24,199 nt of DNA from an uncultured virus (IMG/VR IMGVR_UViG_3300031565_013700) (lineage: Duplodnaviria > Heunggongvirae > Uroviricota > Caudoviricetes). The stretch lies in IMG/VR virus record IMGVR_UViG_3300031565_013700; one strand, given 5' to 3'. Positions within the stretch are counted from its first letter, which is position 1, and each line of letters starts with the position of its first letter. A program made the position numbers and the translations under genes. The notes under the pieces are model-generated. The model saw only the letters and a program-made list of their open reading frames with translations, had not been told where the DNA came from and searched no databases. Shown here piece by piece: positions 1 to 14,503 of the stretch.

Positions 1-956
1 ACGTCGTTGCTTATGGATCTTCCACCATCAAATATAGGAAAAGATTGCCAAATGGTAATTGGACTGATGATGTTGATCTAATAACAGGCCTTACCCAAAC
101 ATTAATGACACCAACTATCTCAGCAGGAATAAACGGAGAGCTTGTGATATTTTATTATGAAGGAAATGAGGTAAGTTACATTCGGTACACTCCCGATAAC
201 GGATGGTCTGAGCCAGATAGCAGAGAACTACCTTATGATGTTTATAGAAATAATCTCCAGGCACCATTATCATTCAATGGAAAAATCATGGTATATGCTG
301 AGGTAGAAGATAACGCGCCGTATTCAGGCACAATATATGCACTATCTTTGAGGACATATAATCCATTAGAATTAAAAGCAGAATTCGTAGTACGGTATGG
401 TTTCGAGAATCTTAAAGCCGAGTTCGTGGTGAGGTATGGCAAAGCGGATTTATTTGCAGATTTCAGGGTGCCATTCAGGTCTGAAAAGGATCTCTACGCC
501 CGATTCAAAGTCGAACCACATAAAAACCTGAAAGCAGTATTCACATTGAGGCAGCTGACGGCTGATCTGAAAGCGGAATTCGTGGTGGGTGACTTGGTAG
601 ATATTTACACAATCTCGTCTGAAGTAACCTATTATAACCCGACCGTTTGGACGGCAGTAACAGGGATGCCCTTAACCATACCAAATGTCAAAATAGGGGA
701 TAAAATTGTGGTTATCTATGATGGGCAATATTCTACCCTTTACGCTTACCTTAGATTAACTGCAGGAGGCACCCAGCTTGGACCATATTATGCAAAAGCG
801 GGATTGTCTTATGGGGAATATCTAGTGAGCCTTACCAGATCGTATGTCGCAATAGCCAATGGTAATCTCATAATCCAGCCAGAATGGTATAATGGATCTG
901 CTAATCAAACCCAGCATTATAAGAGCAACATGGTCATCATGCATTTCCGTGCCTAA
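1..956 (+). CDS. Fibre/receptor-binding-like virion protein, 5'-truncated; propeller-like segment, 6 LKAEFVVR-type repeats, C-terminal beta-sandwich
   Basis: The frame is open from position 3 (VVAYGSSTIKYRKRLPNG...), so the TTG at 45 is probably not the start. Repeats lie at about 367-595. The C-terminal domain (WTAVTGMPLTI...SNMVIMHFRA) resembles phage fibre tip domains. Confidence 0.6.
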   Translation, partial: VVAYGSSTIKYRKRLPNGNWTDDVDLITGLTQTLMTPTISAGINGELVIFYYEGNEVSYIRYTPDNGWSEPDSRELPYDVYRNNLQAPLSFNGKIMVYAEVEDNAPYSGTIYALSLRTYNPLELKAEFVVRYGFENLKAEFVVRYGKADLFADFRVPFRSEKDLYARFKVEPHKNLKAVFTLRQLTADLKAEFVVGDLVDIYTISSEVTYYNPTVWTAVTGMPLTIPNVKIGDKIVVIYDGQYSTLYAYLRLTAGGTQLGPYYAKAGLSYGEYLVSLTRSYVAIANGNLIIQPEWYNGSANQTQHYKSNMVIMHFRA

Positions 957-3667
957 CGTAACCAGTTTCTTCCTCTTTTAACTGGCTCCTCTATTGTGAA
1001 TGTTTTGATGTCGAGCATGTCAGGGCGTATATAGAATTCGGCGCCGAGATTGAGAGAGGCATTAAACTGATTCACGAAGAATTCAGCCTCAAGGTCTTTG
1101 ACTAGCGTCGCTTGACTGACTTTAAATACGGATCTGAGATCCAAAACAGAACTGTGTCGGACCTTGAATTTGCAGTAGATCCGCCTACGGATGAACTGGC
1201 TATGACGGATAACAAAGATTACCCTCAGTTCTTTTGAAGTTGTTTGCCTGATGATTGATTCGGCCGCCAGATCCAAACTTGCAGAATGTCTTATAATGAC
1301 CTCGGCGGGTAGCTCTAGGTTCTCTTGCCTAAGGCGGAAAACGGCCTTGAGATCGAGGCTACCGGAAGAGTAAACACTGAAAACGGCCTTGAGATCACGC
1401 CAGTGGATAACAATGAGTTCGGCCGGAATATCCTTTGAGGCCGAATGCCGAATTACCACGAAGGCCTCGAGATCCTTGCTGGTCGAATGTCTTATGATAG
1501 CTTCAACTAATAAATCTCGGCTGTCTTGGCCAACATGGAAAGTGGCGGAGAGATCATTGATAGCCGAATGCCTTACCTTGAATTCGGCCTTGAGATCACG
1601 CCAGTGGGTAACAATAAATTTGGCGAAAAGGTTGGTATCCCCGCCTACTGTACCGGGAAGAGTGCGATAGGCAAAACCTATTTTTTTATCGGCCGCTCCC
1701 TGATCTCCGGTATAATAAGAAATCACGAGCGTTTTGTTGACATCGCTTATTATGAAACCATTAGGAATGGTGTTGTTTCCTTCCCAGCCCTCTGTCGCTC
1801 TATATGCTGGTTGTGCAGGTCTTTGGATCCAGGCATTAGCAACATGAAAATCTTGTTCTCGGACATATGCTTCATAAGCTCGGCTAGATACATCACCGTT
1901 ATAGAGCCATTCATAAAGCAAGTAATAGATGACTTCGACCCCTTCAATTCTCTTGATCAAACTGGGGTTGGCACAGAAAGTATCAGCTCCATAAGTATTG
2001 CTGAATGCCTGACCCGTATCCACCCAACCGGTAAGAGGAAGTGCCTGAGTAGTTTTTGCGGTACCAATGGCAACCATATTGCGCTGTTTATTCGCTTCGT
2101 AGGCAGCATACCAGTCTCCATTAGAAGCCTTGAGGATTCTAAAATCTTCGAGGCCGTTACTATTAGGAGCCCAGGCGGGAATGAAAGCAGCAATGATTCC
2201 ATATTTTGTCCATGAGGTTAGGTTGTTGCTTCTCGAGACACCTATTTTGTTCTGATTGCCTGCGATATCTGCTCCAACATAGAATATCCAGAAGTCATGT
2301 GTGGAGGATGGCTGATCATGCATATAGAGGAAATCTGCGACGGCTATCTGGTAATCCCAGGCCCCGGCTCCTCCGGAGGGCACTATTTCGTCGTATCCGG
2401 AATCAACCCAGTTCAGGAGATTATAGGAGTAACAGATCCCTATCCCTTTTTGTGGGGAGGCACTGGGGGTATTGTAGACCGCCCAATATTTTCCATCGTG
2501 CTTCACCGGAAGACTTGTCTCAGGATCTCGAAGGACGCAGAAGTTATCCGGGGTAGTTGAGGACCAGCTGTAGTCTCCTGAATCCCAGACGGGATTAGAT
2601 TTCTTCGTCCACGTAGCCCAGCGGTTCACGGGTTCGACGCGGAATTTAGCGAATCTGGTCGATGAGGTGCTATGCCTTACGATAAATTTTGATGGGAGAT
2701 TGGAGACACCGTAGCGGATGGTGAAGGTGCTGATCAGATCTTTGGTTGCGGTGTGCCTCACGATAAATTCTGCTGGAATATTATATGTCGCAGATTGCCG
2801 GATGGTTGTTTTGCATGGGATTTCCTTCGTGGCAGTACGTCTTACAATGAATTCTGCTTCGAGATCTCCTATCCCCTGTTTTAAGACGAATTTGGCATGG
2901 AGATCCACGGAACCTGATTTGCGGACTATGAATTTGGCATCAAGGTCGGCGGTTCCCGTGGGGGCTATGAAGGCTTCAGCTTTAAGATCCTGCGATCCGG
3001 CCTTCCTGACTACAAATTTGGCTTTCAGGTTCTGAGGCGTGCCGTCTTCTATTAGTGAATCTTTAAGGTTCTCGAGGTATCCGCTGATTGTAACAGAGTT
3101 CGCCAAGTTTATTGATTGGGCGATCATCATGTACTGGAGATTCCAGTTACCGTGCAGGACGAGTCCTTTACCTCCGGCGCCGTAATCGGGTTCTGGGATT
3201 GAGAATGCTGGATCTGTGTAGACATAAAGCATCCAGCTGGTGCCTGATTTGACGATCTTGCAGTAATAGGTGGTGCCGACGTTGAGGAGATTATTGCCTA
3301 GACTGACAGCATATCCGGTCGTGTTGTATGTTTCCCAGGGGATCAGGGAATAGGTCGTGGTGGAGTTGGCGCTCCTGAGTATCAGTCCGAAGCTCTCATA
3401 ACCGCCTGCGTTAACATCAGTGTAATCATCAAGATGCTCTGAGACGAAGATGACTCCTTCGCGTATGGTCTGGGATGCGCTTTGGATTGCAGTTATCCTG
3501 AGAGTGAAATATCGGATGAAGTTCTGGAGGGTCCCGGCCTTATTCTTATAGATATAGGTGTTCGTATCTGTTCTATTGAGATTAGTCCAAGTGACCCTGG
3601 AAGCTGTCTTAGATATTCGGCCGCTGGCATCGCTTTCAGTCCAGGTTGTGAAGTTATCTTGAACCAA
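953..3667 (-). CDS. 904-aa fibre/spike-like protein: lectin-like N-terminal domain, 10 repeats, five-bladed beta-propeller (GH43/GH32/GH130-like), 15 repeats
   Basis: TTG start preceded by GAGG. Propeller blade motifs WTKKSNPV, DGKYWAVYN, GIGICYSYNLLNW, FWIFYVG, KIGVSRSNNLTSWTKYG, LEDFRI. Repeat blocks at about 2631-3034 and 1023-1636. Confidence 0.7.
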   Translation of the reverse strand: MVQDNFTTWTESDASGRISKTASRVTWTNLNRTDTNTYIYKNKAGTLQNFIRYFTLRITAIQSASQTIREGVIFVSEHLDDYTDVNAGGYESFGLILRSANSTTTYSLIPWETYNTTGYAVSLGNNLLNVGTTYYCKIVKSGTSWMLYVYTDPAFSIPEPDYGAGGKGLVLHGNWNLQYMMIAQSINLANSVTISGYLENLKDSLIEDGTPQNLKAKFVVRKAGSQDLKAEAFIAPTGTADLDAKFIVRKSGSVDLHAKFVLKQGIGDLEAEFIVRRTATKEIPCKTTIRQSATYNIPAEFIVRHTATKDLISTFTIRYGVSNLPSKFIVRHSTSSTRFAKFRVEPVNRWATWTKKSNPVWDSGDYSWSSTTPDNFCVLRDPETSLPVKHDGKYWAVYNTPSASPQKGIGICYSYNLLNWVDSGYDEIVPSGGAGAWDYQIAVADFLYMHDQPSSTHDFWIFYVGADIAGNQNKIGVSRSNNLTSWTKYGIIAAFIPAWAPNSNGLEDFRILKASNGDWYAAYEANKQRNMVAIGTAKTTQALPLTGWVDTGQAFSNTYGADTFCANPSLIKRIEGVEVIYYLLYEWLYNGDVSSRAYEAYVREQDFHVANAWIQRPAQPAYRATEGWEGNNTIPNGFIISDVNKTLVISYYTGDQGAADKKIGFAYRTLPGTVGGDTNLFAKFIVTHWRDLKAEFKVRHSAINDLSATFHVGQDSRDLLVEAIIRHSTSKDLEAFVVIRHSASKDIPAELIVIHWRDLKAVFSVYSSGSLDLKAVFRLRQENLELPAEVIIRHSASLDLAAESIIRQTTSKELRVIFVIRHSQFIRRRIYCKFKVRHSSVLDLRSVFKVSQATLVKDLEAEFFVNQFNASLNLGAEFYIRPDMLDIKTFTIEEPVKRGRNWLR
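1023..1636 (-). repeat. About 15 tandem 12-16-aa coding repeats (consensus near S-x-x-D-L-x-A-x-F-x-V/I-R-H)
   Basis: Examples: WRDLKAEFKVRH, STSKDLEAFVVIRH, SASLDLAAESIIRQ. The DNA cggccttgagatcacgccagtgg is identical at 1384-1406 and 1585-1607. Confidence 0.9.
2631..3034 (-). repeat. 10 tandem 13-14-aa coding repeats of the same family
   Basis: QNLKAKFVVRK, TGTADLDAKFIVRK, GIGDLEAEFIVRR, SATYNIPAEFIVRH, GVSNLPSKFIVRH and others. Confidence 0.9.
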
Positions 3668-3751
3668 TGTATGCCTCTAGTTATTGTTGGGCTGAGGATT
3701 AATAATTGTTTTATATTAAGAAACTATTTTCGCCTTGTTGAAAATATCGCA

Positions 3752-3925
3752 TTATTTTGCTTTTCTAATGCGGAAGGAAATTTGTTGTTTTTTGATCCCG
3801 CTTTCTGAAGGTTTTGTCTCCTGCAGGGATGGGCCCCGCCCCGAGATTCCGAATGTCTCGATTACCAAGCGATCTCCACGAATAATAAATTCTGCAAACA
3901 GTTCTTGGTTTCCTGCGTTGGCCAT
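3752..3925 (-). CDS. 57-aa small protein with one copy of the repeat motif (not in the ORF track)
   Basis: Translated by hand: MANAGNQELFAEFIIRGDRLVIETFGISGRGPSLQETKPSESGIKKQQISFRIRKAK*. TTTTAAA at 3957-3951 lies about 25 nt upstream of the ATG. ELFAEFIIRGDRLVIETFGI parallels NLGAEFYIRPDMLDIKTFTI at the end of the 904-aa protein. Confidence 0.7.
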   Translation of the reverse strand: MANAGNQELFAEFIIRGDRLVIETFGISGRGPSLQETKPSESGIKKQQISFRIRKAK

Positions 3926-3950
3926 AAATATTGACTTGTGTTCCCTAAGA

Positions 3951-3997
3951 TTTAAAATGGTTAGGATATAAGAAACAGTTTCTGGAATAAATTTAAA
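3951..3997. promoter_or_regulatory. Divergent archaeal TATA promoters with a central palindrome
   Basis: TTTAAA at 3992-3997 (+) is 26 nt before ATG 4024 with a purine-rich BRE-like stretch upstream. TTTTAAA at 3957-3951 (-) is 25 nt before ATG 3925. The palindrome AGAAAC-A-GTTTCT at 3971-3983 lies between them. Confidence 0.6.
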
Positions 3998-4023
3998 CGG
4001 GCAAAAGTATCAATTCTATCGTT

Positions 4024-4647
4024 ATGCCCGCTAATTGGTTAATTCACATGAAGGATGGGGTAACGCTCACGGATGCAGATTGTTTCCCCCATGAAGTTGA
4101 AGTCATGAAACAACGCGGATATTTACCTGATGATATAACAAGCGTTGAAAGAATCATCCATGGTAAGCATCTCACTATAAAGAAATCGCCGTTTATCGAC
4201 ACCTTCTTCGTGGCCACCGAGGAGGGGATTGACATGAAGATGGTCCCTGGCGCAAAAATGCCTCCCGTCGTGACAAAACGGATGCTCGGCTGTTATGTGA
4301 AGGACACCGATCCGCCGCTGCAGACTCGCCTGATAATGGATCCCAGGACCTATGATACCAAGTTGAAGTTCATCCGGGTGACGAAGAAGACTCTCAGAGG
4401 GATCAATGCCAAGCCCACAATTCCTCTCAAGAGAGGCGAGCTGGAGGTTGAATTTACCCGTGAAATGATCGAAAATAATTATTCGATTATTCAGACCACT
4501 GATGTCGACAAATGCTTCACTTCACCCAATGGCCTATCCTGTTTTCTGAAGAAGCCCGCAATCAAGGTTGAGCTAGTTATATACAGTCAAAATGTTCTGC
4601 TGGGTTTCATGCAGAAGGGACATGCACTTAAGATCGAGCTACCTTAA
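4024..4647 (+). CDS. Hypothetical protein, 207 aa
   Basis: Clean ORF with a well-spaced TATA box. No family recognised. Confidence 0.75.
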   Translation: MPANWLIHMKDGVTLTDADCFPHEVEVMKQRGYLPDDITSVERIIHGKHLTIKKSPFIDTFFVATEEGIDMKMVPGAKMPPVVTKRMLGCYVKDTDPPLQTRLIMDPRTYDTKLKFIRVTKKTLRGINAKPTIPLKRGELEVEFTREMIENNYSIIQTTDVDKCFTSPNGLSCFLKKPAIKVELVIYSQNVLLGFMQKGHALKIELP

Positions 4648-4777
4648 AAAAAGCCCCCGCCTGACCGGTCCTCTTGCCCCAAATGGGGCCTCTGGCCTTA
4701 CACGCAGGGGAGGAGTTTTATCGGTGTAGCTGTGCGGCCGTGCGCCACTCTACGAGATGGTCTGGTCCCCGACTACC
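4646..4777 (-). terminator. GC-rich structured region between convergent genes, ending in T7 on the minus strand
   Basis: Hairpin GCCCC-AAAT-GGGGC at 4676-4689; TCCTC/GAGGA at 4669-4673/4710-4714; GTAG/CTAC at 4726-4729/4750-4753; A7 at 4646-4652. Confidence 0.45.
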
Positions 4778-5164
4778 TTACCCAGTGTACTGGTACCTGT
4801 GGTGCAGGAGGAAGGCGACCCTACCAGCTGTCGTAGCTCCAGCAGGGACGGATACCAAAGTCTTGATGACCGTGGACCCGCCAGCGGCGTATGTGCTGCC
4901 GACATACGCCTCATTTCCACCAACCGACTCGATCATCGTGTCCTCGCTGACCGTGGACACCCTGACCCAGCTCTCCTTCCTGGCCTCACTAGCGTTTGTG
5001 GATTCCTTGAAGCTGATGCTCATGTTTATGGCATTAGCCCAGCTTGTGCTGTTTCCAGCCTGATAGATGCTAAATCTTTGCCAAGCAGAAGAGCCACCTA
5101 CGTCAATCGTGCCGTAGTTGATGGAGCCAATGCTGAAGCTAACTTCAGGCGCTGACTTCGCCAA
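4778..5164 (-). CDS. About 128-aa beta-rich (Ig/pilin-like) putative structural protein
   Basis: Likely start is TTG at 5164 after GGGAG. The track's extension to 5245 runs through AT-rich intergenic DNA. The protein is S/T/G/A-rich and all-beta-like, ending VSVPAGATTAGRVAFLLHHRYQYTG. Confidence 0.65.
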   Translation of the reverse strand: MAKSAPEVSFSIGSINYGTIDVGGSSAWQRFSIYQAGNSTSWANAINMSISFKESTNASEARKESWVRVSTVSEDTMIESVGGNEAYVGSTYAAGGSTVIKTLVSVPAGATTAGRVAFLLHHRYQYTG

Positions 5165-5179
5165 TGTGTTTCTCCCTAG

Positions 5180-5206
5180 ATGAGAATAACTCTCATGTAA
5201 TAAAAA
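5180..5206 (-). promoter_or_regulatory. TATA-like element followed by an inverted repeat (possible operator)
   Basis: TTTTTTATTA on the minus strand near 5198-5207, then ATGAGA-ATAAC-TCTCAT at 5180-5196 just before the RBS. Confidence 0.35.
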
Positions 5207-5231
5207 ACTCTTATTATAGAAACTGTTTTTT

Positions 5232-6380
5232 TTATTGCTCTGCAACGACTTTCCTGAGGATGTCTACCACCTGTTTCGCCTCATCATTGACGTTGAAGTA
5301 TTTCTCCGCGATCTTGCGGCACTGGAGGGCCACGTCCTCACGGTTGTTTGCGACTTCTTCCCACACTTCCATGATCTTATCTGCCAAGCTCTCGATGCTG
5401 AAAGCCTCGGCATAACGATAAGCATGGGAGTCTCCATGCGGGTCGGAGTTCCAAGTTATTACAGGGCAGCCGCACGCCGTGGCCTCCTGCATTGAACGGG
5501 AGAGATCGCCATAGATGGCTGAGCCGAAGTACACATCCCCTCGGCTGTAATAGTGTTCTGGATAGTCCACGATGCCTCTAATCCCATGTTTTCCCATGAA
5601 GGCATCGAAGTTAGCCCGTTTCATGAGCTCCTGCCAGAAGGGTTGCTTTATGTTGCATCCCCAGACATTGAGTTTGATGCCCTTGTTTTCCTCGTAGATT
5701 TCATTGAGTGCATAGAATAGATAGAATGGATGCTTGATATTCCTCCATATCTCGCCATAGAGGACGCTAGGCGATCCCTCGAGGTCCTGCTTCATGGAGG
5801 ACCTCACCCACCAGGAGAGGTCGATGCCTTTACTAATCCGGTGGATTTTTTCCCCGGTGGGATCAAAAACTTTCCAGATTTCCTCAGCTCTCTTGCTTGT
5901 AACAAAAGAAGCCTCGAAGCGGTTCATCCAATCGGCTGATGATGAAAAGCTCTTTCTCTTGTCATCTGGCATGAGCTCATTTTCTAGGCAGGCCTCTGGA
6001 GTGCCGTGGGCGAAAAAGGCTTTGGGTTTCAGCTCAGCCACGTTGTTCGACATTGTAGAGTGTATTACATGGATGTCCGCCCATTTCATGGCCCAGCCCC
6101 AATCTTGGGTTCTCATCTCGGGATGGAATGCGTCGACGGCGCCGCCTTCCGCTGCTTTCTTAACTACAGCTTTTGGCGCGGTGGGCGGGGGCGTCTCGCA
6201 TAATCCGGCGAGGACACCTTCTATCTGATTCTCTGCGGCGATGAGTTCCCGGGTAGTCTCATACATACCGCTTAGCTTGGGTCCGAATAGACACCAATGG
6301 GCGATCTTCAGATTAATTTTCTCGCCTTCTTTCCAGGGTGGAATGCCACCCTTTGGACCGTCAGAGAATTTCTGGGACAT
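5232..6380 (-). CDS. GT-B fold glycosyltransferase (GT4-like), about 382 aa
   Basis: LKIAHW...SGMYETTREL, ADIHVIHS, AHGTPE, ISKGIDL, YSRGDVYF...MQEATACGCPVITWN and the C-terminal AEKYFNV helix. Start reassigned to ATG 6380, with TTTTTATT about 23 nt upstream. The 6572 start would overlap the upstream gene by 158 nt. Confidence 0.85.
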   Translation of the reverse strand: MSQKFSDGPKGGIPPWKEGEKINLKIAHWCLFGPKLSGMYETTRELIAAENQIEGVLAGLCETPPPTAPKAVVKKAAEGGAVDAFHPEMRTQDWGWAMKWADIHVIHSTMSNNVAELKPKAFFAHGTPEACLENELMPDDKRKSFSSSADWMNRFEASFVTSKRAEEIWKVFDPTGEKIHRISKGIDLSWWVRSSMKQDLEGSPSVLYGEIWRNIKHPFYLFYALNEIYEENKGIKLNVWGCNIKQPFWQELMKRANFDAFMGKHGIRGIVDYPEHYYSRGDVYFGSAIYGDLSRSMQEATACGCPVITWNSDPHGDSHAYRYAEAFSIESLADKIMEVWEEVANNREDVALQCRKIAEKYFNVNDEAKQVVDILRKVVAEQ

Positions 6381-6434
6381 GACAGTGTATAATTGCGTAT
6401 GGAATAAAAAAGGCTTAGGAGAGAATTTCTGGGA
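6363..6434. repeat. 15-bp perfect direct repeat AGAGAATTTCTGGGA
   Basis: Copies at 6363-6377 and 6420-6434, bracketing the intergenic spacer. Confidence 0.85.
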
Positions 6435-7119
6435 AAAGTCGTTGTCGTAGCTTCCTGAAGAACAGGAGGCCATTCCAGCCGAAAGCGTGTTTGAGGCTTC
6501 TGCTGATGGGGCATTGTGGTTCAGGTGGTTCAGGACCCCCTTCATAGTAGACGTGCAGAATGTCCATGTCATTTACCAGGGCTGCTGCGCCAATGTAGTC
6601 TCCTTCCGTCCTGAGCTGATCCGCCAGTCGATAACCGTTTTGGCGCATCTCTTCAACTACATCCTTCAGCTCCAGGTTCTGTCGCATGGCCACGATAAGT
6701 CCATAATTGAAAGCTTCTTTGAAAATCTGCTCTTTGTCTGTGGTGAAGGATACGACGTCATTATATCCGAGATACTCCTTGATGCCCTGCTCAACTGCAT
6801 GAGCGCCAAGGCCCTTTCCGCTGGAACAGTTCATGCAATAGACGTGCATTCCTTTCAGCTTGTTGAGATTGGATAGATCGATGATGGGTTGCTCGTCGTC
6901 GCCCCACATGACGTAGTCGCTTCCGTGATCGTAATGCACGAACCAACTGGGGGTATTTTTCTCGAGAGCGTCAAGTACCTGAGACTGTATCGCTTGATCA
7001 TCGAGCAATGTTTGAATTTGGGCTGCTGTGCCGATCTGGGTTACGGCATCGATTAACCAGGCGTGGCTGTATATGGTGACGGAATCGAACAGGGGCGCGG
7101 CTGCTGTTACTGTCTCCAT
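6415..7119 (-). CDS. Putative clan CD (caspase/gingipain C25/CHAT-like) cysteine peptidase
   Basis: WFVHYDHGS (His-Gly) and HVYCMNCSSG (Cys), each after a hydrophobic strand, then LG...GIKEYLGY. A Pro-rich linker precedes a basic amphipathic C-terminal tail. Confidence 0.65.
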   Translation of the reverse strand: METVTAAAPLFDSVTIYSHAWLIDAVTQIGTAAQIQTLLDDQAIQSQVLDALEKNTPSWFVHYDHGSDYVMWGDDEQPIIDLSNLNKLKGMHVYCMNCSSGKGLGAHAVEQGIKEYLGYNDVVSFTTDKEQIFKEAFNYGLIVAMRQNLELKDVVEEMRQNGYRLADQLRTEGDYIGAAALVNDMDILHVYYEGGPEPPEPQCPISRSLKHAFGWNGLLFFRKLRQRLFPEILS

Positions 7120-7124
7120 GGATC

Positions 7125-7316
7125 CTAACCTCGACTGAGGGTGTGAAGCTTCAAGCCCAGAATCATCTTGCGGAGAGTCTTTCTTAGGTCAGGATCATGG
7201 TTGAAGTCCCGGATGATCTCTTCTCTAGTGTAGGTCCTCGAACCGATGATGAGTTTCCAGTCTCCTGGCTTGGTTTTGACTACTTCCAGAATTTCTTTAT
7301 CGAATTCATCCGACAT
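7125..7316 (-). CDS. 63-aa hypothetical protein, probable partner of the peptidase
   Basis: Tightly packed (3-nt and 5-nt gaps) between the methyltransferase and the peptidase. Confidence 0.7.
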   Translation of the reverse strand: MSDEFDKEILEVVKTKPGDWKLIIGSRTYTREEIIRDFNHDPDLRKTLRKMILGLKLHTLSRG

Positions 7317-7319
7317 GGA

Positions 7320-8012
7320 TTATATTTCCTTCTCTATAATGAAAAGGGTTGTTCTCGTAAAAAGACCTGGGGGTTCCATGCGAAGTGGTTCGGCCTCGAG
7401 GGGAAAGATCGAGTGGAACTGTTGGTAAGTCACCTTCTGGTGGGTATGGCGAATTGCTTCGCTGGGGATCCCAAGTTCTTTGAGGAGAACTTGAATATTT
7501 TCGATGGAAATATTTCTGAGAGTTAACTTGTCCTCTCTAACTACTTTCTTGTTGTTCGCAGTTTCGACCCCAAAAATCATGACCTTTTCCGAGAGTTCCC
7601 ACATGTTCTGCAGCAGATTCTTGATCATCACCATCGTTGGAATGTGTATTATGAGGCTAGTTGAGATGGTGGTGTCATATCGGGGTGGAAGATGCTGGGA
7701 TTCCAGGGTCTTGACTAGGTTTATGACGGGCTGCGTGGCATCTGCCTGTATGGTTCGTATTTCCGGGAAATAGTTTTCCAGATAGGTGAGCATTTCTTTG
7801 CTGTAATCCAAGCCCACATATCTTTCAGGTTCTTTGATGAATGGCACGATGTGGCCCATGCCACAACCAAAATCAAGTACGGAACTGCCTTTAATGAAGA
7901 GAGCGGCATGTCTGCAGAGTAGCGATTGGCTGCCCTGGGTTAATCGGGGATCTTTATAAAGCCGTAAATACCGTTCGGTTCTTTCCTGGTTCCACAAAGA
8001 TTCGTCTGGCAT
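7320..8012 (-). CDS. Class I SAM-dependent methyltransferase
   Basis: Motif I SVLDFGCGMG, YVGLDYSKEML, IQADAT, YDTTISTSLIIHIP. No DPPY/NPPY or PC motif of DNA methylases. Confidence 0.9.
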   Translation of the reverse strand: MPDESLWNQERTERYLRLYKDPRLTQGSQSLLCRHAALFIKGSSVLDFGCGMGHIVPFIKEPERYVGLDYSKEMLTYLENYFPEIRTIQADATQPVINLVKTLESQHLPPRYDTTISTSLIIHIPTMVMIKNLLQNMWELSEKVMIFGVETANNKKVVREDKLTLRNISIENIQVLLKELGIPSEAIRHTHQKVTYQQFHSIFPLEAEPLRMEPPGLFTRTTLFIIEKEI

Positions 8013-8018
8013 GGTTAT

Positions 8019-8075
8019 GAAAATATAGACTGTAATATAAAATATGGATTATATTGTAAAATATGGATTGTATTA
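8019..8075. repeat. Three tandem imperfect 19-bp repeats over the methyltransferase promoter
   Basis: gaaaatatagactgtaata (8019-8037), taaaatatggattatattg (8038-8056), taaaatatggattgtatta (8057-8075). Confidence 0.8.
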
Positions 8076-8088
8076 TAAAAAAGGGAAT

Positions 8089-8499
8089 TTAAGATATGAC
8101 GCCTAGGGCTTCGTAGACCCCAGCCGATAAACCCTGCATCTCCCAGCCTTCGACAGTGACTCTGAACTCGGCACGGAGGGATAACGAGACTGCCGTATGC
8201 CTCACCACGAGGATTGCCTTCAAGATGGTGCTTGTGCTGTGTCTTATGATGGTTATTCCCTTAAACTCAGTGGAACTAGCGTGTCTAACGACAAGTTCTG
8301 CTGGAAGAGATTTTGTAACCGAGTGCCGTATTATTGCCAATGCCTTTAGATTCGCCGAATTTTGACCAACATGGAAGACGGCTTTAAGTGCGGCAGAACC
8401 GTATGCCATCCTCACGAAGAAGGTACTTTTTAGACTGGCAGAAGCACTGTGACGGACTGTGAAGATTACCTTGGGACCGTCGATCCAGGCAGTTACCAT
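8089..8499 (-). CDS. 136-aa protein made almost entirely of about 8 copies of the repeat motif
   Basis: SASASLKSTFFVRM, NSANLKALAIIRH, SVTKSLPAELVVRH, STSTILKAILVVRH. The start overlaps the upstream stop (TAATG). Confidence 0.8.
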   Translation of the reverse strand: MVTAWIDGPKVIFTVRHSASASLKSTFFVRMAYGSAALKAVFHVGQNSANLKALAIIRHSVTKSLPAELVVRHASSTEFKGITIIRHSTSTILKAILVVRHTAVSLSLRAEFRVTVEGWEMQGLSAGVYEALGVIS

Positions 8500-9128
8500 T
8501 AGACCGCCTCCGAAATATCGGCTAATTTGACCACGATCCCGAAGTCCGAGATCGTGCCACCCGCCTCATTTTGGAGTCGGCAATGGAGGGCGTAGGATCT
8601 TTCCTCCCCGGGAGTATCTCTGTCCTTGTAGGGTATGACTGGCTCGACTGCCTCTCCATATTGTCCACCACCGCCAGCCGCAATGTCGATGTTGCGCCTA
8701 TAGATGCTGTAGATTAAGTTGTGCCTGACGCTTTCGTCCACGCCAGATCTTTCGGCTATGTCGAAGCTGATATCCATTGCACCGGACTGATACTGAACTA
8801 TCTTCACGTAAGCAACCTTACAATATCGGCTTGGGATGGGGATGGAGAATTCCACTATGTTACCGAGCGGAATTCCAGCGGTGTTTGTGATTACCGCGTC
8901 GGCAGTTATTGCATATGCTCCGACTGTCCCTGGAGCTGCAATGGTGAGAGTAATCCCTACGATGGCGGTTATATTGACTGTTTCGCCCACGGGATTGTTC
9001 TTGTCCCAGAGATAGGCATTTCCAGCTACCAAATTTCCGATAGCTCGAACAGGAATGGATGTGGCTCCGGCTGCAATGTTAGCACTGAGGTATGCCCCGT
9101 TTATCGCCAGATTCTCCACGATGAACAT
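8499..9128 (-). CDS. Putative virion structural protein, 209 aa
   Basis: N-terminal LSANIAAGATSIPV...GETVNITAIVGITLTI resembles a small beta domain common in phage structural proteins. AGGAGG RBS. Located downstream of the capsid gene. Confidence 0.6.
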   Translation of the reverse strand: MFIVENLAINGAYLSANIAAGATSIPVRAIGNLVAGNAYLWDKNNPVGETVNITAIVGITLTIAAPGTVGAYAITADAVITNTAGIPLGNIVEFSIPIPSRYCKVAYVKIVQYQSGAMDISFDIAERSGVDESVRHNLIYSIYRRNIDIAAGGGGQYGEAVEPVIPYKDRDTPGEERSYALHCRLQNEAGGTISDFGIVVKLADISEAV

Positions 9129-9154
9129 CTAATCCCTCCTAAACGGGGAGATTA

Positions 9155-9679
9155 TTAGCTCACCAAGAAGGTGGCTTTCAGGTCCTTTGAGGGCAGTGTG
9201 ACAGGAGTGTTGAGTTCTCCGCCTATGATCCACCCAATCAGCTTTATCGTGTAGTCGAAGACTGCTCCGCTTGCCACGATCATGTAAGCGAACTTGCCAT
9301 CACCTGTGATCTCGACGATGACAATTCGTGAGTTGACACGATCATTGACATTCCCACAGTAAATGTACTGGGTCTTCCCAGCTAGGATGATGCCCGGTGT
9401 GGCGACGGCCATGTATTGGGCAGCAGCAGCTGAAGCGGCATCGTTTACCGCGATGTCCAAGATGGCGGCGATGGCGTTCACTGGCCTCGTCACCCCAGAG
9501 GGCAATAGATCATCGATATCGAGTGTCCTCCAGGAGAGGTCATCAGTGCTTGTCACTGTCTTGATGGCGGCCGTCTGGAAGTTGAGGTGTACAATCTGCC
9601 CAGGTAGATACTCTGAGCCAAGCGAAAGTCCTTTGACTATCCGCACTGCATGGTGGTCGTATTCGGTTTCCTTAACCAT
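9155..9679 (-). CDS. Putative virion structural protein, 174 aa, with one repeat motif at its C-terminus
   Basis: Jelly-roll-like pattern (WRTLDIDDLLPSG...AIAAILDIAVND...YTIKLIGW), ending SKDLKATFLVS. Confidence 0.6.
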   Translation of the reverse strand: MVKETEYDHHAVRIVKGLSLGSEYLPGQIVHLNFQTAAIKTVTSTDDLSWRTLDIDDLLPSGVTRPVNAIAAILDIAVNDAASAAAAQYMAVATPGIILAGKTQYIYCGNVNDRVNSRIVIVEITGDGKFAYMIVASGAVFDYTIKLIGWIIGGELNTPVTLPSKDLKATFLVS

Positions 9680-9797
9680 TGTTTTTCCTTTCTCCTAACC
9701 TTTCTTTTCCCCCACATTTTTCCTCTCCGCGGGGGCGTCCAGAGAGATCCATACCGCCTTTGAGGCGCGGTTCAGGCCATTTCCTCCGACTCGGTTC

Positions 9798-9824
9798 AAA
9801 AATGGGTAGGTCGGCTACCCGTTT
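9798..9824 (-). terminator. Hairpin plus T-run just after the capsid stop codon
   Basis: Minus strand GGGTAG-CCGAC-CTACCC-ATTTTT (stem 9804-9809/9815-9820). Confidence 0.55.
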
Positions 9825-9830
9825 AGGATT

Positions 9831-10850
9831 TTAGAACGTCCAGGTTGGGGTCGACCATGAAGCTGCGAGATAACGGGCTGCACCGGCTCCTCTATGGACC
9901 ACTGCCATGTCGAACCTGTGCGAATAGTACGCCTCTTGTAGCGGGTAAGCAGAATAGGGGCCCTCCCACAACTTCAGACCGCGACCACGGGGGCTCAACG
10001 GCTCTCTCATCGACATAGGTTTGACCCTACCTTCGATGGCGAGCAGATACCCCGGTGGACACCAGTCATCCTGTATGAGAGTGAGGCCCTGGAATTGCTT
10101 TATTACCTCGAACCCACTTGTGGCCACTTTCTCGATGATGCTATTAGTCGACATCGCCGACGTCCAGCCAGCTAGATTCTCGCATAGCTCGACTTGCTCC
10201 AGATTCATGAAGAGGAACAGAGGGCCACCGTAGCCATGCTCCCTGATCTCCCTCTTGATATCTGAGAAGACGCTCAATACGATGTCTGCGCTGCCAGTCG
10301 CATCGTAGTGATTGTGGCCCGTGGTGAACGTGTTACCCTTCCATGCCGGAGGAGCGCGTATGCTCGCTGCCGCCATGTTGGCGTCCCAGAAGCCTTTGGA
10401 GGTTGCGCCGCTGCCAGGTGTCAGGCTTGCATAGAAGAATCTCTTGGCTAAGAGCCTCTGATCAGCTCTCAAAGCCTCGGATTGGGTTTCCCTTAACTCG
10501 TTGGCGGTTGCATCTTGGATAGCTTTCTTGGTGAAAGCGTAACCAAGCTCAAACTCCCTCAGAGGTACGGGGATCTCCATGGCGCGAAGCTTCTGCCAAT
10601 CTTCCATGTAGCCTTCTGCAGCAGCTACAAACTCCATGTTTCTCTGCCAGACTCGGACCGACTCCTTTGCGGTTGTCCTGACGAACTGACTCATGAGCCC
10701 CCATTCAACTTCGTTGTAGATCTGGACACCTTCCTGGAACTCCTTATAGAGCATCCTGGTGTCGATATCATCGAAGGTGAAGAGGCCATTGGTTGGGTCA
10801 GGAAGACCGGGCGTGTTGGTAAGATCGCTGTTCTCTGAATCGTTTGGCAT
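9831..10850 (-). CDS. Major capsid protein (HK97 fold)
   Basis: 339 aa, directly after scaffold and decoration genes, GGTGA RBS. FELGYAFTKKAIQD followed by a long helix; GLTLIQDDWCPPGYLLAI. Confidence 0.8.
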   Translation of the reverse strand: MPNDSENSDLTNTPGLPDPTNGLFTFDDIDTRMLYKEFQEGVQIYNEVEWGLMSQFVRTTAKESVRVWQRNMEFVAAAEGYMEDWQKLRAMEIPVPLREFELGYAFTKKAIQDATANELRETQSEALRADQRLLAKRFFYASLTPGSGATSKGFWDANMAAASIRAPPAWKGNTFTTGHNHYDATGSADIVLSVFSDIKREIREHGYGGPLFLFMNLEQVELCENLAGWTSAMSTNSIIEKVATSGFEVIKQFQGLTLIQDDWCPPGYLLAIEGRVKPMSMREPLSPRGRGLKLWEGPYSAYPLQEAYYSHRFDMAVVHRGAGAARYLAASWSTPTWTF

Positions 10851-10858
10851 TATATCAC

Positions 10859-11242
10859 CTAACCATCCGCTGCGGGTGGGTTGGGCGCGGTTACAATCAC
10901 TTCGTCAGCTGCTACAGCCCATCCGACTACGAGGCCGGTGGCTGAGAGCGTTGTCGAAGGTGCAGAACCCCCGGCGACTGCCCCGGTGTAGACCCGGGCG
11001 CCGATGGTCTGAGTGGTGTCCACCTTCATGCGACAATACTTGACGATGGTGATTGGGGCTCCGCTGGCTACGCCGTCTGCCAGGGCCCAGCCGTGGCAGA
11101 CGTCGCTTTTGCCATTGTCAACAGCATAGATCAAACCGTCAGTGTGGATGTAGACGCTCTCCCCCTGCGTGATAGTCTCAGCGGGTACCGCTTTGAAACT
11201 GTGCCGGGGGTCAAACATTACAATTGAACCAATTACAGGCAT
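10859..11242 (-). CDS. Capsid decoration/cement protein
   Basis: 127 aa, small-residue-rich. AETITQGESVY...HGWALADGVASGAPITI...GARVY...VVGWAV is the beta-tulip decoration pattern, in the usual position before the capsid gene. Confidence 0.7.
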   Translation of the reverse strand: MPVIGSIVMFDPRHSFKAVPAETITQGESVYIHTDGLIYAVDNGKSDVCHGWALADGVASGAPITIVKYCRMKVDTTQTIGARVYTGAVAGGSAPSTTLSATGLVVGWAVAADEVIVTAPNPPAADG

Positions 11243-11253
11243 TTTTTATTCAC

Positions 11254-12033
11254 CTAGCTAAGCCTCTTCACAGCTTTATCCTGAATCAAGTCGTCTAAGC
11301 CATGCAGTTTGATGATCTCAGCTCTCCTCTCGGGTGTCATTTTGCCAGATTCTCCGGGGCGGGTTTGGGTGGCCTTGCCAACATCCTCTCCTACCTTGAA
11401 TTTCTGGGTCTTGAATACTTCAAGGAAAGCACTGCGATCCTCGCTGCTTAGCCTAGCTGAAAGCTTGATCACGGCATCTTTCTGTATCGGTGCAAGGTGT
11501 TTGGCGCTGACGAGCTGGGAAACCTCATTGGAGACCTGCTCCATATGAAGTTGCTCCTCGAGCTGAGCGATCCTGCTTTCCAGGGCCGTCATCTTCTCAT
11601 CTGGTTTCTTGTCCGTTTCGTCTGGTTTCTTGGCACCTTCCTTAGGTTCAGGATACTTCTTCTTCCACTCATCGGCGCATTCTGCCATGGTCTTGCCCTT
11701 GCCCATGCAGTCTTTGACGAACGCCTTATAGTCGGCCATTTCCACAGGTGGTTCTTTCTTCTTCTCATCGGGTGCCGGATACTCATCTTCGCCTGGTTTC
11801 TTCTCTTTCCCTGCGAGTAGCTTAGTTAGCTGCTCTAGAAGTTGGGCGTTTGTGAGTTCCCCTGTATTAACACCTAGGATTTTGGCGACTTCTGTGAAAT
11901 CCTGATCAGACAACTTGTCTTTAAGGAAGGTAGCGCATTGTTCCTCTTTGGTAGGTTTCTTGTTTTTTTCGTCTTCCAAGTCTAGCTCCTCGAATGTGAC
12001 TACTTCAGTGTCACCCTGTCCATTTTCGGCCAA
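11254..12033 (-). CDS. Capsid scaffolding protein
   Basis: Highly charged and helical, with a coiled coil (KMTALESRIAQLEEQL) then VSQLVSAKHLAPIQKD, like the scaffold half of Mu gpI. Preferred start is TTG 12033 after GGTGGAG; the track gives 12051. Confidence 0.75.
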   Translation of the reverse strand: MAENGQGDTEVVTFEELDLEDEKNKKPTKEEQCATFLKDKLSDQDFTEVAKILGVNTGELTNAQLLEQLTKLLAGKEKKPGEDEYPAPDEKKKEPPVEMADYKAFVKDCMGKGKTMAECADEWKKKYPEPKEGAKKPDETDKKPDEKMTALESRIAQLEEQLHMEQVSNEVSQLVSAKHLAPIQKDAVIKLSARLSSEDRSAFLEVFKTQKFKVGEDVGKATQTRPGESGKMTPERRAEIIKLHGLDDLIQDKAVKRLS

Positions 12034-12109
12034 GGTTGTTTCTCCACCCAATTAAATAGTTCTTAAATATAAAACAGATACCGACAGGACTACTGACAAA
12101 GAAGCGGAA

Positions 12110-12751
12110 TTAAGTGTTGTTTTCCACAACTATCCGCGCTTTTTTCCCGTGGCTCCTTTTAATGTGCGCAATAATACTTCTTTCGCCGATTCGACGCCCA
12201 CATTCGGGGCATTTAGCCCATCCTTCCATAATATCGTCCACTATAACATATTCTACCTCCACTTCTTTGCGTCCATCTTTGATTGGTTGAAGCAGTGGTT
12301 TTCGTTCCGGTATGGGTGTTTGAAGTATATCTTCGAGCCGAGGAATTTCGAGCCAAGGCACATCTTTCTTTCCCAGGGCCTCGAAGAAACGCTCCATCCC
12401 ATCCTGGCCAAAATTGTAGGCTCTGAAGAAGGTCCTAAGCAGAGGCAGAGGCAAGCTTATTTCAGGCGATTTGCCTTCCATGAATAAATATAATGCGTCT
12501 AGGAACTTCAGTAATAGTAGTCCTTTCCTAGTGATGGCGTATAATGCGTTTGTGCGTCCATCTTTATCGTCCTTCAGTTTCTCCAAGAAGCCCCGATCTG
12601 TCAATTCCGGTATTTCTCTGATAAGCACTTTCCAACTTATGTTTGACCCATACATAATCTTGGTTGGTTTCTCGCATTGATTAGCCGCGGAGTATACCAC
12701 CAATAAGATGTCTCTCCATATTTCCGCTCTTCCGCGTTTATCGTAAGGCAT
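12110..12751 (-). CDS. Winged-HTH transcription regulator (archaeal type) with C-terminal C2H2 zinc finger
   Basis: KRGRAEIWRDIL...PTKIMYGSNISW...LTDRGFLE...YAITRKG; CPECGRRIGERSIIAHIKRSH. Confidence 0.85.
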   Translation of the reverse strand: MPYDKRGRAEIWRDILLVVYSAANQCEKPTKIMYGSNISWKVLIREIPELTDRGFLEKLKDDKDGRTNALYAITRKGLLLLKFLDALYLFMEGKSPEISLPLPLLRTFFRAYNFGQDGMERFFEALGKKDVPWLEIPRLEDILQTPIPERKPLLQPIKDGRKEVEVEYVIVDDIMEGWAKCPECGRRIGERSIIAHIKRSHGKKARIVVENNT

Positions 12752-12817
12752 TGAATTACTAAAGTCAACCGAAATATTATAGATTTGAGGACGGAATTAT
12801 AACAGGGAAGATCGATC

Positions 12818-13420
12818 TTGCTATTAGTTCAATGGTTGCGTTTTCTCAGTATTGTGCTGGGAGTTATTGTCTTTGGATTGGGGATGTTTCTGATCTGGAT
12901 CCAAAAGACGAAAAACCTCACGTTTGGCCCCAACTCGTGGGATTGGGGGCAAATAATTTTCCTGATATTGGCCTTCGGAGCGGTGGGTGTGCCCTTGGCA
13001 ATGTACGACTCTGTGGTTTTTGATTGGGGTCAACATTCAATTTTGGTTCCATCCTCAGGGGTTACTTTAAGCGGAGATTCAGTTTCCTTCGGTGTTTATT
13101 GGGATGTGACGGCTACCCAGCGCGTTACTGAGATCAAGTGGGGCGAAATTGAGGCAGGAGATAAGGCCAATGTTGAGGTCTGGATAAAAAATGAGGGCTT
13201 GGTTAATCTTTACTGTCAGGCCAGTTGGCTTGAGAACTCCTGGGATCCTCCTGGAGCTTTTGCCTATTTCACCATGATCTGGCACTTTGGAGACGCGCCC
13301 ATTCAACCAGGGAGAACTAGGAAAATATTGGTGGAGCTGTTAGTTGACGTGGATATTGTAGACGTGAATAATTTTTTCTTCATAATAAACATCAATGGTG
13401 ATGATGCCCCACCTCTATAA
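12818..13420 (+). CDS. Membrane-anchored protein: two TM helices plus an Ig-like domain
   Basis: Two hydrophobic N-terminal segments, then GVYWD...IKWGEIEAG...VWIKNEG...WDP...W...IQPG...LLV...NFFFIINI. I recall this pattern from Bathyarchaeia hypothetical surface proteins (unverified). Confidence 0.75.
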   Translation: MLLVQWLRFLSIVLGVIVFGLGMFLIWIQKTKNLTFGPNSWDWGQIIFLILAFGAVGVPLAMYDSVVFDWGQHSILVPSSGVTLSGDSVSFGVYWDVTATQRVTEIKWGEIEAGDKANVEVWIKNEGLVNLYCQASWLENSWDPPGAFAYFTMIWHFGDAPIQPGRTRKILVELLVDVDIVDVNNFFFIININGDDAPPL

Positions 13421-13442
13421 ATATCTGAAGAGCCAAAATTAA

Positions 13443-13856
13443 GTGACTATGATTCCATGGTTAATGTTGTTAGCCATCGCTCTAGTCATCTTAATCTACT
13501 TGCTCTGGAAGATAGTCCAGGTCCCTAGCCTTGGGGTGTCCACCGATAAGTCTCTCTACGACAGAACCGAAACGCTCCAGATCACCGGCCAGCTGATAGA
13601 CCAAAATAGTGCGCCGATGATCGGGAAGCCGATTTCGATAGCCATTGAGCCTCCGGCGGGAGATGCTTATAACCTCCCCATAGTGACAACGGACAGCAAT
13701 GGCAACTTCAGCGCCAGCTGGGACATCCCAGATGATGCTGCTGGTGGCACCTACACAGTCTATGCGGCGTCTCTTGGAGCTTCGGGCTCAAAGACCTTCA
13801 CACAGAGCAAGCGGGTAGTAGAGAGACTAGACGTGCAGAGTGCCATTCCCAACTAA
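13443..13856 (+). CDS. Membrane-anchored Ig-like (macroglobulin MG2-like) protein
   Basis: N-terminal TM helix; VSTDKSLY...ITGQLID...TTDSNGNFSASWDIPDDAAGGTYTVYA. The start could be ATG 13449. Confidence 0.75.
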   Translation: MTMIPWLMLLAIALVILIYLLWKIVQVPSLGVSTDKSLYDRTETLQITGQLIDQNSAPMIGKPISIAIEPPAGDAYNLPIVTTDSNGNFSASWDIPDDAAGGTYTVYAASLGASGSKTFTQSKRVVERLDVQSAIPN

Positions 13857-13981
13857 TGGTAATTCTATTATTTTCATTAGATAAGAGAAACCATATAGTA
13901 CGCCATACAACCGTTTTGGGTTGTTGCTCTATAATGATAATATTAACTTAACTCGATTATTATATTTATTCCGAGTTATCC

Positions 13982-14500
13982 TCAAAACATGCTTTTAATT
14001 AAGAGTGATTCTTTCGATGGAATATCATCTATGCTGAATATCGGTTCTTCATTTTCGGTGTCAATCCAGATCATTTTCTGCCCAGCCGTCACACGGTATA
14101 GCTCCAGCATCTTAGACATTCTCAATTCCCAATACTCCATGGCCCGATCCAGATTCTTTGAATCCACAACAGTTACCCGTCTCGGGCCAATGCTCAGTTG
14201 AACCCGATCATAGATTGAGAAATATCCTCTGGCAAAGAGACTGGCCACCGCCCCGTAAGTAACCGCCCGTTTTATCAACGTCGGGACTTCTAGAATATTT
14301 TTCCACTCATAATTAAGGGCCTCCCGGACCAGGAATCCTCTAACGTCAACCATCACGCCTTCAATCACATAATCTAAAATGGAGTCAGAGATCGAATTTT
14401 CGGTGAGGTCCATCACACCATTAAGATATCTTCGAGAAGTCCAGAGCCAGCTTGGCTGCCTTACCCAAAAGACAGCCTTCAGCTGCTGCCAGTCAGACAG
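13982..14500 (-). CDS. Putative head-tail connector/adaptor-like protein, probably starting at CTG 14500
   Basis: Helical pattern ISDSILDYVIEGVMVDVRGFL...VPTLIKRAVTYGAVASLF resembles gp6/gp15/Mu gp36-type adaptors. The frame is open upstream of 14416 up to the TAG at 14504, GAGGGA precedes CTG 14500, and the extension encodes QQLKAVFWVRQ. Confidence 0.55.
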   Translation of the reverse strand: MSDWQQLKAVFWVRQPSWLWTSRRYLNGVMDLTENSISDSILDYVIEGVMVDVRGFLVREALNYEWKNILEVPTLIKRAVTYGAVASLFARGYFSIYDRVQLSIGPRRVTVVDSKNLDRAMEYWELRMSKMLELYRVTAGQKMIWIDTENEEPIFSIDDIPSKESLLIKSMF

Positions 14501-14503
14501 AAA

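Follow-up and report, generated by a model that had tools for sequence, protein, structure and literature searches.

A beta-strand repeat without a family name in putative fibre proteins of an uncultured virus, and its single copies next to end domains

Repetitive beta shafts are a familiar structure in viral fibres. In the adenovirus fibre and in sigma1 of reovirus they are triple beta-spirals with pseudo-repeats of ~15 residues, a conserved Gly/Pro turn and two short strands per unit. The tip protein of T4 gp5 caps the blunt end of the helix by strand pairing, and the uncapped ends of CsgA/FapC-type solenoids grow by strand addition. Spike and tip are reported to be fused in P2 and separate in T4 (PMC12407873). 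Delta of Orsay virus forms a "beta-bracelet" with strands of 5 residues, loops of 3 residues and a phi-x-phi-x-phi pattern, which makes up most of the fibre with globular interruptions and for which triple beta-spiral shafts are also named as a comparison (PMC7565637). In this work we describe a repeat unit of 13-14 amino acids (aa) in a stretch of 24,199 nucleotides (nt) from the uncultured virus IMGVR_UViG_3300031565_013700 (Caudoviricetes). This whole stretch is referred to as the window. The unit occurs in tandem arrays as well as in single copies beside non-repeat domains. It is fairly probable in our view that the arrays are the shafts of fibre or adhesin proteins and the single copies junction strands at the seams between shaft and end domain.

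The unit has the consensus x-D-L-K-A-E-F-V-V-R-H-S-x-S. A preliminary description of the sequence had already claimed that it is shared by several open reading frames (ORFs). For verification a position matrix from 38 array units was scored on all 30,206 twelve-residue segments of the six-frame translation, and the sharing proved to be real: 39 segments reached at least 14 bits, namely six in ORF 3..956 (+), 24 in 953..3667 (-), seven in 8089..8499 (-) and two single copies, and the best segment outside the repeat copies had 8.8 bits. Together with an eighth, weak copy of 9.4 bits in 8089..8499 (-), the counts of 6, 24 and 7-8 agree well with the 6, ~25 and ~8 copies given earlier. The ORFs concerned are the following:

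3..956 (+): 317-aa protein with 6 units (nt 366-596) between N- and C-terminal non-repeat domains; its 5' end lies outside the window
953..3667 (-): 904-aa fibre-like protein with two array blocks and 24 units in total
3752..3925 (-): 57-aa ORF directly upstream of the gene for the 904-aa protein; residues 7-18 (nt 3872-3907) are its only unit
8089..8499 (-): 136-aa "minimal" repeat protein with the N-terminus MVTAWIDGPK, 8 units (nt ~8149-8481) and a conserved tail
9155..9679 (-): 174-aa protein with a conserved N-terminal peptide, a predicted jelly-roll core (residues 28-152) and a tail ending in KDLKATFLVS (nt 9158-9187)
13982..14500 (-): 144-aa domain protein with a candidate junction strand (14453-14488), the linker PSWLWTSRRYLNGV (~14417-14452) and then the domain

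Relatives were collected by an alignment of homologues of the major capsid protein, which led to 80 metagenome loci (designated L001 and so on) with up to 10 kb on each side of the capsid gene. Their capsid proteins are between 54% and 100% identical to that of the window; L001, at 100%, is the same virus.

The scores of the arrays are circular because the arrays were the seeds of the matrix. Outside the seed set were the single copies QELFAEFIIRGD of the 57-aa ORF (3872-3907, minus strand, 20.0 bits) and QQLKAVFWVRQP beside the 144-aa ORF (14453-14488, minus strand, 14.3 bits). The C-terminal KDLKATFLVS of the 174-aa protein, scored on the identical locus L001, reached 18.5 bits over 10 positions. 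The strict regular expression of the preliminary description had nine matches in six frames, every one of them in repeat-bearing ORFs. Among 200 dinucleotide shuffles of the window, 19 contained a segment of at least 14 bits (0.10 per window) and the maximum was 18.3 bits. The copy of the 57-aa ORF scores above all 200 shuffles and is therefore beyond chance. The 14.3-bit copy, taken alone, falls within the shuffle range and could be a chance hit, yet it is conserved in all 16 members of its family. For the 637 kb of related loci ~2.6 chance hits of at least 14 bits are expected, which fits the handful of scattered singles of 13-14 bits found there. On the DNA level the copies share on average 16.3 of 36 bases (~45%) and at most 27 of 36; the conservation is therefore one of the protein, under selection at this level, and a DNA-level repeat was rejected as explanation.

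Two further observations concern the unit. In mid-strand the consensus has Ala, a small residue, which is replaced by Cys in many tails of the 174-aa family (DLTCKF, DLYCKF, ELLCKF, DLHCQF) and in two units of the 904-aa protein (residues 281 and 828); this position admits only A, G, C or S, which suggests tight packing or a disulfide. In L009 a homologue of the winged-helix/zinc-ribbon protein (8065-8790) carries a motif copy of 18.3 bits, EDLKATFFIGES, directly before the CPECG zinc ribbon. It represents either chance, with ~0.13 such hits expected across the loci, or a recombination scar.

None of the six repeat-related ORFs has a match in Pfam, and among the PHROGs no functionally named family was found for the repeat proteins. 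Only phrog_11333, which has no annotated function, matches residues 219-359 of the 904-aa protein (E 6.9e-7, positions 819-958 of a 4401-position profile), and the 317-aa protein belongs to no Pfam or PHROG family. Sequence-profile searches of the PDB gave nothing better than E 0.7, neither for the 136-aa nor for the 144-aa family. With phmmer, the 136-aa protein retrieved from 1.84 billion representatives 121 proteins at E<=1e-3, of which 50 had E<=1e-10. Most of these are 400-3500 aa long with several matched stretches each, and a set of 105-175 aa shares the C-terminal tail of the 136-aa protein. Pfam searches with 30 of the relatives yielded DUF2341 (6), Laminin_G_3 (2), DUF4082 (1), TIG (1) or nothing (18). 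Judged by these comparisons, the repeat appears as a family without a name, comprising ~121 protein clusters that are mostly long and carry lectin-like domains. The earlier statement that it is not a recognisable named family thus agrees with Pfam, the functionally named PHROGs and the PDB sequences, and no described fibre family matching it was found.

The terminal copy of the 174-aa protein is conserved in all 23 complete homologues; the 24th ends at a contig edge inside the strand. The 24 distinct sequences have 166-186 aa and 30-100% identity. Their tails follow the pattern P-S/Y-x-D/E/S-L-x-A/C/G-x-F-x-V with invariant P163 and L167, after which only 0-4 residues follow, so that the chain comes to its end at the point of the H/Q turn in an array (...FVVNQ, ...FHVSH). 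The matrix derived from the window assigns at least 13 bits to 15 of the 23 tails, and the remaining ones fit the pattern by eye. An AlphaFold2 (AF2) model from 21 sequences (pLDDT 77.7) predicts a confident beta sandwich for residues 28-152 and both tails with low confidence (pLDDT 60 and 55 for the last two blocks). In this monomer model the terminal strand is extended and not packed on its own domain. The best structural match of the predicted core is a trimeric tip domain of a Bdellovibrio fibre, 8ok3_A (VIA Z 9.3, root mean square deviation (rmsd) 3.3, 113 of 121 residues aligned); the next matches, generic viral jelly rolls near Z 7, lie about 2 Z lower. Foldseek gave E 5e-4 to the same Bd2133 tip, and 1yq8, 1wck and 5hba are among the lower-ranking fold matches. 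The modelled core is thus a jelly-roll knob of the TNF/C1q-like type in terms of fold resemblance only, and the jelly roll suggested in the preliminary description is borne out by model and fold match. A search of the ESM Atlas returned only unnamed viral clusters.

Locus L007 encodes two tandem paralogues of the 174-aa protein (2315-3352), each of which has its own terminal strand (EDLKATFVVNQ and EDLYCKFVVDQ). At the opposite end of the protein, the peptide MVKETxYDHHPVRIxKGL (window 9596-9679, minus strand) is, in the form MVK..t.f.hHPV, common to unrelated proteins of 416-460 aa which occupy the same position after the capsid gene (L036:12419-13798, L033:2453-3802, L014:11171-12418). It may be a common virion-attachment peptide. 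The larger proteins of L036 and L033 end with three units.

The second conserved copy, that of the 144-aa protein, is of a different kind. The hidden Markov model (HMM) of the 144-aa family identified members in 19 loci. In 11 of 16 distinct members (L003, L009, L004, L037, L041, L036, L046, L047, L042, L035 and L030) the domain forms the C-terminus of a frame of 372-1179 aa, four of these frames ending at a contig edge. They consist of non-repeat N-terminal domains, 5-14 or more units, the last unit, a conserved linker and the 144-aa domain, and the arrays run directly into "...VRHPxWLWTxRRYLNGV". The junction reads ...EDLKAVIEVAHWVRLPAYFWVRHPSWLWTSRRYLNGVVNLTEN in L003 and QQLKAVFWVRQPSWLWTSRRYLNGVMDLTEN in the window. 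The other five members (the window, L002, L006, L057 and L018) are short forms with one unit. Strand and linker contain the invariant residues L7, R14, P16, W20 and G28 of the family alignment. Within the 25 junction codons there are 6 synonymous and 5 non-synonymous differences between window and L003, and 8 and 7 between window and the short form of L002. These alignments show that in most relatives the strand is the final unit of an array on the same chain, and that the 144-aa gene of the window is an N-terminally truncated form which retained one unit and the conserved linker. The idea of an independent tag on this protein has therefore to be given up.

The preliminary description had listed three single copies. 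Those of the 57-aa ORF and of the 174-aa C-terminus stand as described; the third, QLKAVFWVRQ, precedes the conventional start of the 144-aa ORF. It is located after the TAG (14504-14506) of the 2054-aa ORF and before the first ATG, GTG or TTG of the 144-aa ORF, and shares the frame of these two ORFs; the listed start is the GTG at 14416. The start region (14417-14506, minus strand) contains a Shine-Dalgarno-like GAGGGA, the upstream TAG and then TTT-CTG. The distant L057 has the same layout with GGAGA, TGA and TTC-CTG; in L006 AGGAGG and an ATG, and in L002 a TTG, lie ahead of the unit. The 144-aa protein probably begins upstream of the GTG at 14416. This layout suggests a start at the CTG 14498-14500, inferred from sequence, or termination-reinitiation.

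The same protein had been called connector-like. Neighbours found with a language model speak for this (Phage_Mu_Gp36 in 11 of 30, DUF6712 in 7 and Phage_connect_1 in 1), Pfam, PHROGs, PDB sequences and hhalign do not: the 16 family members have no Pfam match to PF05135 or PF07030 at E<=1 and no named PHROG, and hhalign gave probabilities of 0.4% for Mu gp36 and 0.05% for gp35, which are weak values because single sequences served as targets. In L009 a second fibre of 607 aa, among the distal fibre genes, also ends in the 144-aa domain. Two copies in one genome depart from the single copy of a head-tail adaptor, and the domain is therefore a poor fit to a classical adaptor. The 12 loci with at least 5 kb upstream of the capsid gene contain no 144-aa domain there. 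The connector assignment is a lead only.

Among the array proteins, those of the 136-aa class share a unit that starts within the first 5-10 residues, contain from one to more than 10 units and end in W-x-x-Q-G-(L/V/I)-x-x-x-V-Y-x-x-L-x-V-I-S, a tail of ~20 residues with an invariant Gly. In the family of the 136-aa protein itself the number of units is 5-10. In the window the tail is EGWEMQGLSAGVYEALGVIS (nt ~8092-8160). Very large repeat proteins end in this tail, too (L042:12851-13930; L037:6787-8931). Such a tail may serve as a foldon-like cap or for attachment. Modelled by AF2 as a monomer, the 136-aa protein is all-beta with a short terminal helix (pLDDT 57, pTM 0.46) and has, at low confidence, one beta strand per unit, in line with the beta-strand pattern proposed earlier. 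Fold searches with this weak model gave 8enq_A (CsgA; Z 9.3, rmsd 8.6), 9h78_B (Z 7.2, rmsd 3.2) and 7usl_C (Z 7.1), a hint that the protein resembles a two-sheet beta-solenoid. The 904-aa protein is composed of an N-terminal domain, a first block of 10 units (nt ~2669-3034), a central non-repeat domain, a second block of 14 units (nt ~1019-1636) and a C-terminal end of 21 aa. Relatives have its N-terminal domain in further repeat proteins, and across the related loci it was never seen fused to the 144-aa domain. The 57-aa ORF has no homologue apart from the identical one in L001. Its unit is as close to the N-terminus as the first unit of 136-class proteins. We regard this ORF either as an orphan gene or as what is left of the 5' end of a fibre gene.

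According to the explanation we propose, a unit would consist of one amphipathic beta strand, whose L, A, F and V point to one side, and of the R-H/Q-S-x-S turn after it. In a clade of uncultivated viruses which have a capsid protein of the HK97 type and a portal like that of Mu, such units in series would make up rods, the shafts of fibre or adhesin proteins of the virion. These arrays would act as spacers of freely variable length, from 1 to ~50 units, between interchangeable end modules: lectin-like domains at the N-terminus or internally, and the 20-residue tail or the 144-aa domain at the C-terminus. The shafts would project receptor-binding domains from the particle. A single copy would be the unit next to an end domain, retained together with it; the terminal strand would serve the closure of its own oligomer or the seam with the shaft, and the 57-aa ORF would be a leftover fibre-gene start. 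The genes of the repeat proteins lie in the head and structural module, which supports a role in the virion.

Several points weigh against this explanation. The label "fibre" itself is inferred from domain content and gene position, and the solenoid resemblance comes from a model with pLDDT 57. The junction strand of the window is not preceded by an ATG, GTG or TTG and may not be translated here. L014 encodes a divergent, 130-aa version of the 144-aa domain as well as a larger post-capsid protein, and both lack the strand. A seam within one chain does not explain well why the short forms kept an unattached canonical strand and why the 174-aa protein is never fused: its domain was not found at the C-terminal end of a long shaft on the same chain, and no fused form and no protein above 306 aa with this domain was detected, which is weak evidence.

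These last points lead to the possibility, put forward in a less specific form by the preliminary description, that the terminal strands continue the array of another protein non-covalently, with the 174-aa and 144-aa modules plugged onto the shafts of the 136-aa or 904-aa protein. We consider such docking in trans conceivable but unlikely. Eleven of 16 members have the array and the 144-aa domain on one chain and five, the window among them, have them apart, so that the fused long forms of relatives could be read as a "Rosetta stone" of an interaction. The short forms of L002, L006, L057 and L018 retain a canonical strand with linker, the predicted tail of the 174-aa protein is extended and unpacked and ends exactly at the onset of the array turn (V-S/N-H/Q, then stop), and the 136-class proteins, with a strand so close to their N-terminus, are always encoded two genes downstream of the 174-aa protein. 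Moreover, the 904-aa protein has no anchor domain recognisable with Pfam or PHROGs, and the synteny of the 174-aa, 209-aa and 136-class genes is strict. Gene adjacency, however, is weak evidence of binding, and so is the missing fusion of the 174-aa protein on the opposite side. Covariation between tails and arrays gave no significant signal: in 15 of 19 loci, after the near-duplicates L005, L023, L025 and L026 had been dropped, 174-aa tails scored on average -3.80 against the arrays of their own genome and -5.22 across genomes (permutation P = 0.087). The arrays of L047 and L041 show drift (AEVYGHAEIKN, AELLGRFEAQ) and the tails there remained canonical, which points to a conserved partner different from arrays at large. 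A wider version of the idea, cassette fibres in which separately encoded modules snap together and one beta shaft is continued across protein boundaries, is tentative and in our judgement doubtful. There, the one-strand stub of a 174-aa or 144-aa module would pair with an open array end; fusion, fission and changes in array length would re-wire the binding domain to its attachment site, and the fused and split 144-aa forms of close relatives would be snapshots of this process.

Alternatively, the single copies could be inert relics, the 144-aa stub being an untranslated deletion scar in front of the starts GTG 14416 or ATG 14413 and the 57-aa ORF a dead fragment of a fibre start. The absence of ATG, GTG and TTG between the TAG at 14504-14506 and position 14416 would fit this, and so would a 57-aa ORF without a homologue beyond the motif. 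In L003, with 94% capsid identity, a fibre gene of ~2 kb is found at the same place, and the loss in the window is therefore recent. Nevertheless, we hold relics for improbable: the stub arrangement recurs in the distant L057 (40% identity in the 144-aa family alignment), which shares with the window the Shine-Dalgarno-like element, the upstream stop and TTY-CTG, while L006 and L002 have ATG and TTG; the conserved residues are accompanied by synonymous changes; and this explanation has no bearing on the 174-aa tail, which 23 of 23 homologues retain. Very improbable is an origin outside the virion, with the repeat proteins as secreted or cell-surface adhesins or host-modifying cargo. Surface proteins of cells often contain DUF2341, LamG and TIG domains as well, and methyltransferase and glycosyltransferase genes are interspersed. 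But the 174-aa, 209-aa and 136-class genes follow directly after the capsid gene in every relative, the 144-aa gene is situated inside the head module between portal/terminase and scaffold/capsid genes, and it is a fibre tip that the 174-aa core resembles most in structure.

The remaining genes of the window which define this setting are:

8499..9128 (-): 209-aa protein, always between the 174-aa and 136-class genes; found with tblastn in 37 loci
9831-10850 (-): HK97-type major capsid protein (phrog_3990, E 2.5e-35), the anchor for locating the 80 related loci
14504-20668 (-): 2054-aa ORF with ATP-dependent DNA ligase, beta-lactamase-fold and HNH parts
20668-22212 (-): Mu-like portal (PF06074, E 2.5e-45)
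22167-23738 (-): large terminase (Terminase_6N, E 1.3e-5)

On the minus strand the order is terminase, portal, 2054-aa ORF, 144-aa ORF, winged-helix protein, scaffold-/protease-like protein, decoration-like protein and capsid, followed by the genes of the 174-aa, 209-aa and 136-aa proteins, methyltransferase, glycosyltransferase, the 57-aa ORF and the 904-aa protein. The gene of the 317-aa protein is on the plus strand and convergent to the others. The order of the 174-aa, 209-aa and 136-class genes is kept in every locus long enough to show it; the 209-aa protein belongs to no family in Pfam or PHROGs. The 2054-aa ORF, which sits between portal and head genes and is kept in 29 related loci, contains domains of an ATP-dependent DNA ligase (E 2e-23) and of the beta-lactamase fold (E 1e-12), together with HNH endonuclease matches and a weak match to a LigD-type phosphoesterase. 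A methyltransferase gene and one or several glycosyltransferase genes separate the 136-class gene from the large fibre genes (window 5232-8012, minus strand). The layout was the same in four of four relatives checked, including L004:12408-14295, L062:13785-16606 and L041:13481-20678, the last of which also encodes a sulfatase, a radical SAM enzyme and an epimerase. This gene set hints at a modification of virion or host glycans. The 446-aa glycosyltransferase ORF (5232-6572) overlaps the 234-aa ORF (6415-7119) by 158 bases at 6415-6572 (minus strand), and its start codon is probably later than the listed one.

Pfam and PHROGs agree with the preliminary description in that no tail tube, sheath or tape-measure family is recognisable in the window, and in four relatives the 10 kb downstream of the capsid gene yielded none either. 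A tRNA scan of the window found no tRNA. Scans of IMG/VR with the 136-aa and with the capsid protein gave no relatives. Among GenBank phages the capsid protein reaches only ~25% identity (actinophages), the terminase is represented by one weak record and the 136-aa protein by none. One capsid homologue is labelled as coming from a metagenome-assembled genome (MAG) of Thermoplasmata; another is on a 2.4-kb contig of a bacterial MAG and is uninformative on the host. The winged-helix protein belongs to the HTH_45 family (Pfam, E 8e-13), which we take to be mostly archaeal. Within the full-text library searched, no description of the repeat or of the virus clade turned up.

Compared with the systems named at the beginning, the locus shares with triple beta-spirals the short tandem repeats and the alternating hydrophobic residues; there, these form a thin shaft between the virion anchor and a jelly-roll knob. 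The unit nevertheless differs from that of a triple beta-spiral. It has 13-14 residues, one long strand (one per unit in the low-confidence AF2 model), an R-H/Q-S turn and no conserved Gly/Pro turn in the 38 seeds; its lectin-like domains are N-terminal and its conserved end modules C-terminal, and no PDB chain matches it in sequence. The triple-stranded beta-helix of T4 gp5 (PMC4576200, PMC12407873) is likewise a repetitive beta rod with hydrophobic interior and a separate or fused protein on its blunt end, and the fused and split spike and tip of P2 and T4 parallel the array and the 144-aa domain. Unlike there, the end modules of our viruses, a jelly roll and a domain of ~140 aa, are unrelated to PAAR-like tips, and neither sequence nor fold comparisons pointed to a triple beta-helix for the rod. 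CsgA/FapC beta-solenoids and RTX beta-rolls, with one strand per half-coil, are closest to the low-confidence model of the 136-aa protein; the Q/N ladder and the Ca-binding GGxGxD are absent here, and the context is a structural module of a virus.

The C-terminal domain of the Bdellovibrio Bd2133 fibre (8ok3/8ond), the best fold match of the 174-aa core, has 12-15% identity, so that the likeness is one of fold. It ends a long fibre, whereas the 174-aa protein is encoded on its own and has a free tail at either end. Short conserved modules by which several receptor-binding proteins attach are known from the branched tailspikes of CBA120 with TSP4-N; these are folded N-terminal docking domains (PMC8825819), whereas the modules here would be single repeat strands and their docking is hypothetical. 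The beta-bracelet of Orsay virus delta differs by its 8-residue period, its pentameric state and its eukaryotic RNA virus, and the repeat sequences are unrelated.

What is unusual is the set of features as a whole: a unit in arrays of any length, a strictly conserved stub of one unit on two non-repeat proteins, and, among close relatives, a series of fused and split forms. New are the universal terminal strand of the 174-aa protein and the recognition of the 144-aa copy as the last unit of an array that is fused in 11 of 16 relatives. The viruses concerned are uncultivated and have no recognisable tail genes near the head module in the regions searched. With ~121 clusters, the repeat is a new family which, together with two new end modules, is blank in current annotation pipelines. 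If true, non-covalent joining by strand continuation would explain a rapid swapping of receptor-binding domains.

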